Source: a virus (lineage: Duplodnaviria; Heunggongvirae; Uroviricota; Caudoviricetes). Taken from it: 14,693 nt of DNA. The number at the start of each line of letters is the position of its first letter. The stretch's first letter is position 1. A program made the position numbers. The DNA lies in the IMG/VR virus record IMGVR_UViG_2541047965_000006. One strand, 5' to 3'. This document shows positions 12,001-14,693 of this stretch, one piece after another.

Positions 12001-14693
12001 TTTTATAACCTCAATACGGGCACCAGAAATGGGCTGAAAAACTGCGCAAAAAAGTGCGCAAAAAACTGCGCAAATCGATCACAGAACCGAACACACAGAC
12101 CAGCAGGGCAAAGTCAGATATGACGCGGCTTTCAGGGGAAAAGACCACCGGAAAACTGCGCATTTTTTCCCAAAACGAAACGCAACAGCCGCGCAAAACG
12201 AAACCGATACGTGATGAGCGAAGAAGTGCGCAAAATTTCATTGCCAGAGTTAAGGATGAACCTGAAGGAGAAACCTACGAAATTTTCGTAGGTCAAAAAA
12301 ACGGCGCAGAAATAGATATTATAACAATGACCTACAAACAAGCCCTGCAAGTCATTGATTAAAATCAATTATCGCGAATCGCGAGAATTAGGTTTTGGCT
12401 ATCGCCCGTGCGGAGTAATCCTTGCGGGACGTGACATTGTCATCAAAACAGTGACACACAGGAGGGCCGATGAACGGGCGTTCACCAACAGGGAGCAACG
12501 CCAGAACGCGACCCCGTACCAGTGGAAGAAGCCGGAACGATTGCGGCGGTAACTTGCTGATATTCCCGATAACGCAAAATTGCGTTGGCCTCACCTACTC
12601 GCTCAGCAAAACCCCTTCTAAAGGTATTTTGTGGATAATCAATAAGATGCGTTGACTTGCTGCATTGCAAAAAGTTAAGCAGGAAGGCACGGCCTGTAAG
12701 ATGGGATGCTGTGTGATGATTCAGCCCACCAGCAACTATAACGATTCCCGTTACAGTTGATGTGCTTTTTTGCTGGTAAGGCGTAACCCGTTGATTGTTC
12801 CAGAATCCCCCATTGGGGGAAAAGCTGGCTACATCCCTCACTTCTGAGGACTGTTAACCAGCAGGCTGAAATATACTCACAAATTACGAAATTTTCGTAA
12901 ATTTAACTTTCATCCAGTACATCCCCGAATTACGGGTATGTAACCACAGCCATTACGAGGTGTTGTTGATGCGTGATATTCAGCAAGTGCTGGAACGCTG
13001 GGGAGCATGGGCGGCAAATAATCGTGAGGATGTGACCTGGTCATCGATTGCAGCCGGATTCAAGGGACTTATTCCATCAAAGGTAACCTCCCGTCCACAG
13101 TGCAGTGATGATGACGCGATGGTGATATGCGGGTGTATAGCCCGTCTTTACCGGAACAACCGCGATTTGCATGATTTGCTGGTTGATTACTACGTGCTGG
13201 GCATGACGTTTATGACACTGGCACGAAAGCATGGATGCTCAGATGGTTATATCGGGAAAAGGTTACAGAAGGCTGAGGGGGTTGTTGAAGGCATGTTGAT
13301 GATGCTGGATGTGAAGCTGGAGATGGATCGGTATGTTGAGCGGGAAGCGCTGATTTCGTAACGCACAGACAAAAAAAACCGCAGTCGGACCCTGCGGTGG
13401 AGAATAACGTCACAATCAGGTGTATGAAGAACAAGAAAAAACGTATTGCTCACAATTATGCCACGAGACAAAGTGCAGTGCACCCTGAACAGTGATAATC
13501 ACTACACAGACCAGCAGGGCACATGTGAATCATCATTACGGTGATCATGCCTCCCCCATCCCGAAACAGGGGACAGGGTTACGAAATTTTCGTAACCCCT
13601 CCACGGTTGCCCTTTAAGTGCAGGCGTATTTGCATAACGTCGTTAACCAGTCACCCACTGATCACGCTCAAACATACGCAGAAACGGGGCTAAATCGCAT
13701 TCTGGCGCAATATTTGTTGTAGGGGCTGGCATTCCACCGGAAAACGACTACAGGCTTACAGGCAGCTTAAAATTCGACAGGCGAATAACAGGGCGGGATC
13801 TGGAGGCCTGCACAAAAAGAGCAGGTTACTACCCGAAAAGTGTAGTGCCATATCGGGGCTAAAAAAAACCGCAGTGCGATAACACTACGGTATATGCCAC
13901 CAAAGAAACACAACAAGAGATCAGCAATGAGTAGTACCTGTAAGCCTTCGGGGTAATTGTAACACATGAGCAATCTTTTACTGGAAACGGTTTTTCACTG
14001 GACGCGATGCCGATATTGCAAATCAGCACAGAAAGGGGATGCCTGATACAATACCCTCACCCGATAAAATCCCACCGATAAACTCATCTGCCACGAGCAG
14101 AAAGAGCGAACGAACCCGATACGCAGTAATGCTTGTCGGGTTCAGCTTTTTAAGGCGGCTGTAGATGTCGTGCTCATCCACCAGCTTCATAGCGGATAAC
14201 CGGAAAAATTCCGGCTCATGGTTGTACATTTCTTCAGCAAATCATTTTAGCTATACGTTTGGTTATACGATTTCAAAATTCAATTAATCGATTTCTTTAA
14301 AATCATGTAGTTACACGCTTAATTAAACTCCTCTCGTGGACCAAAAATCCCAAGAAAACCAACCTATTGCGGTTGGTTTTTTTATATCTGCATTTAATTC
14401 GATAAACAGACCGCGACACATCACGGCCTGTTTATTTTCTGTTATCAGAACGTCCAGACCACACCCGCCTGAGTTGTGCTGCTTTCTTCACGGGAGAAAC
14501 GGCTGTCGATACCAAGCGTTAGCCCCGTCAATGTTTGCTCAAAGCCAGCGCCTGCATCAGTGGTCACGTTGTTGCGGCTGTTAATTGCCGAACTCCACAT
14601 CGCCGTATCGTAATTAACGCCTTTTACGCTACCAAGACGCCCACGCACGGTGTCCAGTTCTGCATCAAATACCAGCGGTTGTGCTGCCGCCAT

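Follow-up and report, generated by a model that had tools for sequence, protein, structure and literature searches.

The stretch of DNA analysed here, the IMG/VR virus record IMGVR_UViG_2541047965_000006 (14,693 nucleotides, hereafter the window), is, judging by its sequence, a satellite island of the P4-like or phage-inducible chromosomal island (PICI) type, and it carries three copies of one short palindrome around a gene for a Q antiterminator. In our reading, to which we give an even chance, the three sites are copies of a family of hairpin-forming palindromes whose native place is the coding sequence for the N-terminal domain of the phage antirepressor Ant, and they would represent a stem-loop element rather than an operator. 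The exact 15-mer TACGAAATTTTCGTA occurs three times in the window, starting at positions 12276, 12885 and 13580, always with T as the central base on the + strand, and no other site in the 14.7 kb lies within three mismatches of it. At that threshold 0.53 matches would be expected, and the observed count was reached by none of 200 dinucleotide shuffles, so that the number of copies, their coordinates and their placement around Q, as given in a preliminary description of this DNA, are borne out. The copies are the following:

12273-12293: copy 1, ACCTACGAAATTTTCGTAGGT, a perfect palindrome of 21 nt with 10-bp arms, ACC-TACGAAATTTTCGTA-GGT.
12884-12900: copy 2, TTACGAAATTTTCGTAA, a perfect palindrome of 17 nt with 8-bp arms.
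13576-13598: copy 3, GGGTTACGAAATTTTCGTAACCC, a perfect palindrome of 23 nt with 11-bp arms.

Copy 1 lies inside the open reading frame (ORF) 12054/12120-12362, copy 2 begins 84 nt 5' of the Q ATG, and copy 3 lies 215 nt 3' of the Q stop codon. As predicted hairpins, copy 2 is the weakest of the three (-4.5 kcal/mol) and copy 3, with its extension, the strongest (-18.4 kcal/mol). The self-complementary arm extensions pointed out earlier are present in the window, but relatives do not retain them consistently at copy 3, where L001, L114 and L297 have zero or one extra pair. Two fragments of antirepressor-type genes were recognised in the region of copy 1:

12235-12352 (118 nt), + strand: fragment of a P1/P7-type ant gene (ant1/ant2 N-domain, phrog_1726), forming the 3' part of ORF 12120-12362.
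12337-12398, + strand: fragment of a second antirepressor-type gene, 92% identical to L051 8261-8322, which lies inside a 260-aa ORF of L051.

The identity of the first fragment is 98% with the antirepressor gene (414 aa) of the viral contig L109, 96.6% with RCS47 ant1/ant2 (a P1-like phage), 77% with the antirepressor genes of Stx2a phages and 73% with P7 ant. PHROGs assigns the encoded segment to phrog_1726 (anti-repressor), and protein alignment also supports the ant identity. Moreover, copy 1 read in the ant frame gives T-Y-E-I-F-V-G, and local alignment of its flanks with the ant genes of the T/G lineage gave scores of 78 (left flank) and 119 (right flank), neither value being reached by any of 200 shuffles. 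As to the second fragment, the L051 ORF is Bro-N-like by eye only, without a family search, and in L114 the same fragment sits between two palindromes. ORF 12120-12362 thus ends in antirepressor debris, copy 1 came in with that debris, and its entry into the island was, as judged from these flanks, a passive one within an ant gene fragment. The ORF had earlier been called doubtful; the location of copy 1 within it is correct, but the label is too dismissive of a frame whose 3' part is a piece of an antirepressor gene. The idea that copies 2 and 3 are decayed ant remnants as well was rejected, as their flanks have no similarity to any of four ant lineages. Elsewhere, a 53-aa ORF (2971-3132, …ERTEQGRAIRQYFIKCEEEL…) resembles a C-terminal piece of another antirepressor-type protein, and the island holds several antirepressor fragments.

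Loci encoding the Ant N-terminal domain were retrieved through protein similarity, with one of the two search patterns excluding the motif, and TACGAAA-N-TTTCGTA, read as Y-E-[I/N]-F-V, was present in all 80 of the 80 ant loci obtained. Among 33 unique sequences, the codons TAC, GAA, TTC and GTA were each found 33 times, and the middle codon encoded Ile in 31 sequences, 30 times as ATT and once as ATC, and Asn in the remaining two; in the same set, 29 of 31 neighbouring degenerate codon columns showed synonymous polymorphism. When 48 unique ant sequences were considered, the palindrome formed the longest run of invariant columns, free of the third-position dips present elsewhere, and the stretch of the gene with the lowest conservation lies immediately beside it. 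Outside a patch of some 80 nt that surrounds the palindrome (-17 to +62), the ant genes of P7 and of the RCS47 type are approximately 97% identical; within this patch the flanking codons are swapped, GGT...ACC for ACC...GGT, and the core is unchanged. By these comparisons, the element in ant genes is evidently under constraint at the nucleotide level. The P7 genome (101.7 kb) holds one copy at up to two mismatches, inside ant, and the first 14 kb of a Stx2a phage also hold one; further near-matches in ant loci are at chance level, except for a second exact copy in L159 and L161, which has C at its centre and is intergenic, 9 nt 5' of an intrinsic terminator.

With regard to the protein, a -1 frameshift on AAATTTT was dismissed by reading the sequence, the heptamer being out of phase with the ant frame. 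The N-terminal domain of Ant is covered by no Pfam or NCBIfam family, only the C-terminal KilAC/ANT domain being matched, in the longer L109 protein, and no similarity of the N-terminal domain was found to the Rha protein of the island or to any solved structure. Right after Y-E-I-F-V follows a hypervariable segment of 12-16 residues, for instance TPMDKKKGGADQVVIV in P7 (L295) and GQKNGAEIDIIT in L109, which is exchanged among near-identical P1-like ant genes and is common to lambdoid ant genes; this segment may be a specificity loop.

We then compared the pairing of the two arms with their sequence. For the close ant lineages, RNAalifold predicts a hairpin of 10 bp; the three pairs that flank the core co-vary, as CAC/GTG, TAC/GTG, GGT/ACC or ACC/GGT, and 96.9% of cells are paired, as compared to 25-49% with a slid partner; the covariation score was reached by none of 500 shuffles, a control that ignores relatedness and is not to be taken as a probability. 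Among distant Ant homologues (37-55% identity), for eleven of which the DNA was fetched, the register of the stem is unchanged but its sequence differs: TACAAAA-N-TTTTGTA on three backgrounds (Glu changing to Lys together with TTC to TTT), TACAC-AAAAA-GTGTA in two, and, as further variants, CACTACA-AAAAAAC-TGTAGTG and GACGGTTACAT-AAAAA-GTGCAACCGTC, the latter at -19 kcal/mol. The hairpin is shifted in L401 and decayed in L400. In an ungapped alignment of 25 ant sequences, compensatory double changes were observed at six of ten pairs, pair 14:22 being G-C in 18 sequences, A-U in seven and broken in none, and 89% of cells were paired, in comparison with 28-44% in slid controls. The ant stem spans 8-12 bp and encloses an A/U-rich loop of 3-7 nt, and its centre base takes all four bases, giving I, N, T or S. 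The ends TAC...GTA are invariant because Tyr and Val fix five of the six bases, with pairing fixing the A of GTA and excluding the synonymous TAT. Altogether, it is evidently not the sequence but Watson-Crick pairing, at a fixed register, that has been kept across large evolutionary distances. The secondary suggestion of the preliminary description, that hairpins might form, gains support from this retention of stem pairing through compensatory change in ant.

The surroundings of copies 2 and 3 are of a different kind, and comprise the following features:

12824-12883, + strand: left-flank module of copy 2, common to Q-containing and Q-less satellites.
12969-13361 (ORF start 12960/12969), + strand: Q antiterminator gene (PF06530, E = 4e-52).
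13378-13398, - strand: intrinsic terminator, a 7-bp stem followed by T8, convergent on the 3' end of Q.
13456-13548, - strand: putative small ORF of 30 aa, Cys-rich/hydrophobic, with copy 3 located 27 nt upstream of its ATG and the terminator 13398-13378 after it.

The left-flank module was found at 89-93% identity in 560 E. coli genomes, as well as in viral and metagenome contigs. In the Q-containing satellites L001, L114/L214, L296, L297 and L384 the palindrome lies 84-85 nt before the Q ATG, and a downstream palindrome with its centre base flipped to A lies 0.8-1.0 kb past the Q start in L001, L114 (two copies), L297 and L384. Q-less satellites (the O157 island L294, L045 and others) have just one copy, which occupies the homologous position and follows terS and a gene of 93 aa. 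In this position, as at copy 2 of the Q-containing relatives, the palindrome is usually AAAC-core-GTTT; the satellite core stays constant against flanks that are either replaced or 77-90% identical, and modules have changed places around it, the segment 12714-12822 of the window being upstream here and downstream in L014. From these comparisons, copies 2 and 3 emerge as free-standing elements kept in the right-end non-coding region of a P4-like/PICI-type satellite family, and as elements that, in the Q-containing members, bracket the orphan Q gene and the putative convergent small ORF. Of the 32 satellite loci to which the left-flank anchor led, 15 have one change within the core, T14->C, and this change occurs with two types of flank. 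It produces an A.C mismatch on the + strand and a G.U pair on the - strand, and the predicted hairpin keeps -10.5 kcal/mol on the - strand and drops from -9.7 to -5.0 kcal/mol on the + strand.

The Q protein of the window and lambdoid Q proteins share 70-90% amino acid identity and, over the flanks compared (12600-14300), only the coding sequence is common, so that the satellite Q is an orphan without a late promoter and qut region of its own. By analogy with P4 delta, it may act in trans on the late operon of a helper prophage. Regarding the small ORF, paralogous small ORFs were noted in our own reading of the relatives L001 and L294, and in Q-less satellites a putative 36-aa hydrophobic ORF ends 25 nt before the palindrome; a known toxin family was rejected for the small minus-strand ORFs, which gave no Pfam match. 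An exact 18-nt direct repeat, ACACAGACCAGCAGGGCA, is present at 12093-12110 and at 13504-13521, the latter copy inside the small minus-strand ORF, and related modules of the form 'ACCA.CA.GGCA' recur in L001, L294 and L045, a recurrence that suggests paralogous small-ORF modules. The strong minus-strand terminators at 13378-13398 and 13868-13891 both begin with AAAAAAAACCGCAGT on the top strand. As predicted, these two terminators imply minus-strand transcription units convergent on Q, possibly small RNAs or mRNAs for small proteins. Q-less satellites also hold a second palindrome, (GAT)ATGGGGATCCCCAT(ATC), near the right end of the island (L294 9340-9353; L045 12900-12925), which is absent from the window.

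If the element works as a stem-loop, it would do so on single-stranded nucleic acid, that is, on a transcript or on transiently single-stranded or cruciform DNA. Its likeliest role in the island would be the control in cis (processing, stability or a transcription barrier) of RNAs that cross the palindrome, the candidates being the Q leader on the + strand or the transcript of the small ORF on the - strand; alternatively, it might serve as a DNA hairpin promoting recombination. That all contexts are transcribed or plausibly so (coding sequence, Q leader, 3' region by a terminator) favours RNA. The lack of sense-strand G.U pairs in ant, together with a common satellite variant that is tolerated solely as a G.U pair of the minus strand, favours action of the bottom strand, strict Watson-Crick symmetry at the DNA level, or templated correction. 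The types of mismatch are mixed.

Several observations weigh against a stem-loop element. The covariation comes from a handful of lineages and was set against shuffles blind to relatedness. Synonymous changes that would give G.U pairs in the sense RNA (TAT, GAG, TTT, GTG) were found in none of the 33 close ant sequences, and such avoidance is unusual for an RNA helix and fits Watson-Crick symmetry at the DNA level or templated correction of a quasi-palindrome. In addition, the 14 core bases are identical in close enterobacterial-type sequences across ant coding sequence, intergenic satellite DNA and a terminator-adjacent 3' untranslated region, an identity across differing contexts that would also fit a sequence-specific reader. 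The 15-mer is a CI/Cro-type operator in unrelated AT-rich phages, and so can bind a helix-turn-helix dimer. Copy 2 in the window, moreover, forms only the weak hairpin given above.

A more extended version of the stem-loop reading is put forward tentatively. It holds that an undescribed, structure-conserved stem-loop lies in the ant coding sequence of P1/P7-like, Stx and other lambdoid phages, beside the hypervariable segment, and that satellites keep free-standing copies of it as a shared cis signal. These copies might couple expression of the orphan Q and of the small ORF to a reader of the ant hairpin of the helper, or might recombine with the ant and regulatory modules of the helper, by cassette exchange diversifying antirepressor specificity and by capture of genes such as Q. 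Conserved hairpins and quasi-palindromes are known kinds of element; a pairing-conserved stem-loop at one codon position of ant, common to satellites, appears to be undescribed. Rfam 15 has no model for the palindrome and gave no match at E <= 1 in 12000-14300, its gathering thresholds yielding only C4 and isrK, and a search of the accessible literature for the palindrome sequence found no paper containing it. The ant genes of P1 and P7 have been studied for decades. If functional, the element would add a second, hidden layer of information to a phage regulatory gene of wide distribution, and would connect helper phages at the sequence level with their parasitic satellites; it would offer a testable handle on the limiting of antirepressor synthesis, on the control of the satellite orphan Q, and on the movement of short specificity cassettes between phages.

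Structured RNA elements are familiar in phage regulatory transcripts, such as lambda sib, which mediates retroregulation of int by RNase III, and the RNase III site of the N leader. The likeness consists in a short stem-loop that is transcribed with an early or regulatory gene under tight control, that is independent of context (coding sequence, leader or 3' region) and whose pairing is compensatory. Unlike these RNase III sites, the palindrome is known from sequence only, with a stem of 8-12 bp, avoidance of G.U at the synonymous sites of ant and no Rfam family. The boxB/nut hairpins of lambdoid phages are 15-nt interrupted palindromes read by the N protein, and the resemblance lies in a 15-nt palindrome in several copies near antitermination genes; however, the loop of boxB is conserved and its stem free, whereas here the loop base is free (all four occur), the loop has 3-7 nt, and no boxA or N-like gene was seen. 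The hairpin/cruciform of diversity-generating retroelements, as generally known, likewise adjoins a hypervariable protein segment, but here there is no reverse transcriptase or template repeat and the hairpin lies 5', not 3', of the variable patch.

The main rival, which we regard as possible if unlikely, holds that the element has no regulatory function and is a quasi-palindrome that maintains itself, or a hotspot of recombination. Templated mutation at quasi-palindromes is well established; during replication, a template switch within one strand would correct mismatches in one arm against the other, and thereby freeze synonymous sites, yield concerted double changes and spread symmetry into unconstrained flanks, and the hairpin or cruciform may also seed short patches of gene conversion and the shuffling of modules between phages and satellites. 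The strict Watson-Crick pairing in close ant genes, without G.U intermediates at the four synonymous sites, agrees with this explanation, as do the position of the palindrome at the edge of a hypervariable patch and the divergence over about 80 nt between P7-type and RCS47-type genes with its GGT/ACC to ACC/GGT swap. It is also in line with the persistence of the palindrome in non-coding satellite DNA whose flanks lack ant similarity, with the rearranged modules around it (12714-12822 as compared with L014), with the antirepressor fragments that adjoin palindromes in the window and in L114, and with the bracketing of Q, a gene of lambdoid origin, by two copies of the palindrome. On the other hand, about half of the satellites sampled, with flanks of two types, still carry the uncorrected T14->C mismatch, and homology breaks near, and not at, the palindrome; an exact mosaic breakpoint at the palindrome was rejected, as the common sequence continues for approximately 18 nt beyond it. 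Moreover, the hairpin is kept at the same codon position down to 37-45% identity, which is long for a neutral feature, even though it decays or shifts in L400 and L401. Natural quasi-palindrome hotspots such as that of E. coli thyA, again from general knowledge, are alike in their short arms, tiny spacer, A/T-rich centre, concerted arm change and symmetry extending into the flanks; they differ in having been described as mutational sites, and not as something conserved between phage families or carried over into satellites. Should the element be of this nature, it would offer a clean natural case of templated mutation shaping protein-coding sequence, with the I/N/T/S residue and flanking residues of Ant set by DNA symmetry.

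A second alternative, in our view quite improbable, is that the palindromes act as duplex DNA, as operators to which a symmetric dimer of a DNA-binding protein from the host, the helper phage or the satellite would bind. It takes up the preliminary description, which had taken the copies for operators of a dimeric protein and had suggested that the DNA might loop around Q. Close copies do have invariant 7-bp half-sites around a free central base, and the extended consensus AAAC-core-GTTT amounts to 11-bp half-sites. Nevertheless, core and flank pairs change compensatorily without a co-varying regulator gene, base identity is not what is conserved, given the double changes at six of ten pairs in ant homologues, copy 1 lies in an ant fragment, and P7 has a lone intragenic site. 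Looping finds no support in the relatives either, as the spacing between copies 2 and 3 is not conserved but ranges from 695 to about 1050 bp, with no loop geometry kept. A scan for sigma-70 promoters found none near any copy; a single -10-like hexamer, TATACT, is present near copy 2, but it lacks conservation and L297 has lost it by deletion. A conserved sigma-70 promoter with its transcript starting at the palindrome is at most a possibility: TATACT or TATATT stands 6-7 nt 5' of the palindrome in some satellites, without a -35 hexamer, and is absent in L001, L114 and L297. The Pfam and PHROG scans of the island ORFs (integrase, Rha, Ash, DUF4222, DUF927, SSB, ProQ/FinO, PerC, J-like and Q) detected no XRE- or CI-like protein, in agreement with the earlier remark that no obvious repressor gene is adjacent, and the sole small DNA-binding regulator common to the satellites is of AlpA type, recognised by eye.

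A further point in favour of operators is the identical 15-mer in a cI/cro-type promoter spacer of AT-rich phages, which are probably phages of Gram-positive hosts. There a promoter with the hexamers TTGACA and TATATT, whose 17-bp spacer is filled by the 15-mer, lies between divergent cI-like (helix-turn-helix plus S24 peptidase) and cro-like genes; the 15-mer recurs 235 bp away inside cro, as Y-E-N-F-V (L032 3830-4150; also L036, L039, L047, L053, L061, L062 and L068). Degenerate copies of the palindrome were also noted in the cI/cro intergenic region of L032-type phages. In TP901-1, the arrangement of OR, OL and OD has a layout comparable to the L032 switch with its distal intragenic copy. 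The two settings are alike in the identical 15-mer and in one copy within a coding sequence; they differ in that the sites of the AT-rich phages overlap promoter hexamers between divergent repressor genes, whereas the enterobacterial contexts have neither promoter nor repressor gene. We treat the identity as coincidental, since about a hundred chance occurrences are estimated for a collection of that size.

It is very improbable that the palindromes are a Q-binding element (qut), a packaging site (cos) or a replication origin: the sites do lie near Q, the site that Q-less satellites have downstream of terS is in a region rich in repeats, and iteron-like TGCGCAAAA repeats adjoin copy 1, but three cos sites at distances of 600-700 bp would do harm, and none of the three roles explains a copy inside the ant gene of P1-like and Stx phages. 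A Q-binding or qut site was rejected on 91 lambdoid loci (L002-L013, L215-L293), whose Q proteins are 70-90% identical and which have no copy within 3-10 kb; a lambda-type cos, as no cosN site resembling GGGCGGCGACCT was found above chance. The review of PICI cos sites by Feiss describes no feature matching the palindrome. An intrinsic or bidirectional terminator was likewise discarded, as a terminator scan calls no copy and the core stem is weak, with two G-C pairs and no U run, and so was pairing with the isrK or C4 RNAs of the island, for which duplex energies fell within those of shuffled controls. The paper on Gifsy-1 isrK/anrP/antQ describes no palindrome or operator, and its context is different. 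Finally, the preliminary description had considered a widespread repeat unrelated to the island. The palindrome is indeed widespread in phages and satellites, but it does not behave as a dispersed host repeat of the repetitive extragenic palindromic (REP), enterobacterial repetitive intergenic consensus (ERIC) or miniature inverted-repeat transposable element (MITE) kind, with no copies in the host DNA next to L001 and L294 or in approximately 650 kb of prophage and host loci, a survey of these loci and not of a whole host genome.

The island has E. coli relatives that are about 82% identical, for example L001, which lies between yljB and clpS. Besides the features given above, the window comprises:

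1-1083: integrase.
1559-1816: AlpA-like ORF, recognised by eye.
1956-2654: Rha.
3611-4687: Ash region with a long 'Ash' ORF, containing isrK and C4 RNAs in tandem.
4256-4332: isrK RNA (above the Rfam 15 gathering threshold, score 51 bits).
4357-4444: C4 antisense RNA (above the Rfam 15 gathering threshold, score 78 bits).
5130-7546: DUF4222 and DUF927 protein.
8731-9925: SSB, ProQ/FinO-domain protein and PerC.
10347-11999: tail-tip J-like receptor-binding protein of 550 aa (PF09327 and PF12421, tail-tip fibre and J C-terminal domains).

Satellite L045 has the pair of isrK and C4 as well; C4 also occurs in L001 and, upstream of icd-ant, in P1-like ant loci. The J-like tail-tip protein is an unusual cargo for an island of the P4-like/PICI type, and it may retarget the tails of the helper. 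A perfect 20-bp palindrome of another kind, TTTTGTATATATATACAAAA, lies at 8352-8371, 24 nt 5' of ORF 8395-8712, and resembles a LexA box with TTGT...ACAA replacing CTGT...ACAG. Close to copy 1, the segment 12037-12311 holds five to six copies of an iteron-like AAAA(C/G)TGCGCAAAA, which are conserved in L001 and L114; three of them stand in tandem with 12-nt spacing at 12037-12075, and the repeats, which overlap a 76-aa minus-strand ORF (12011-12241), are a candidate origin for the DUF927 protein.

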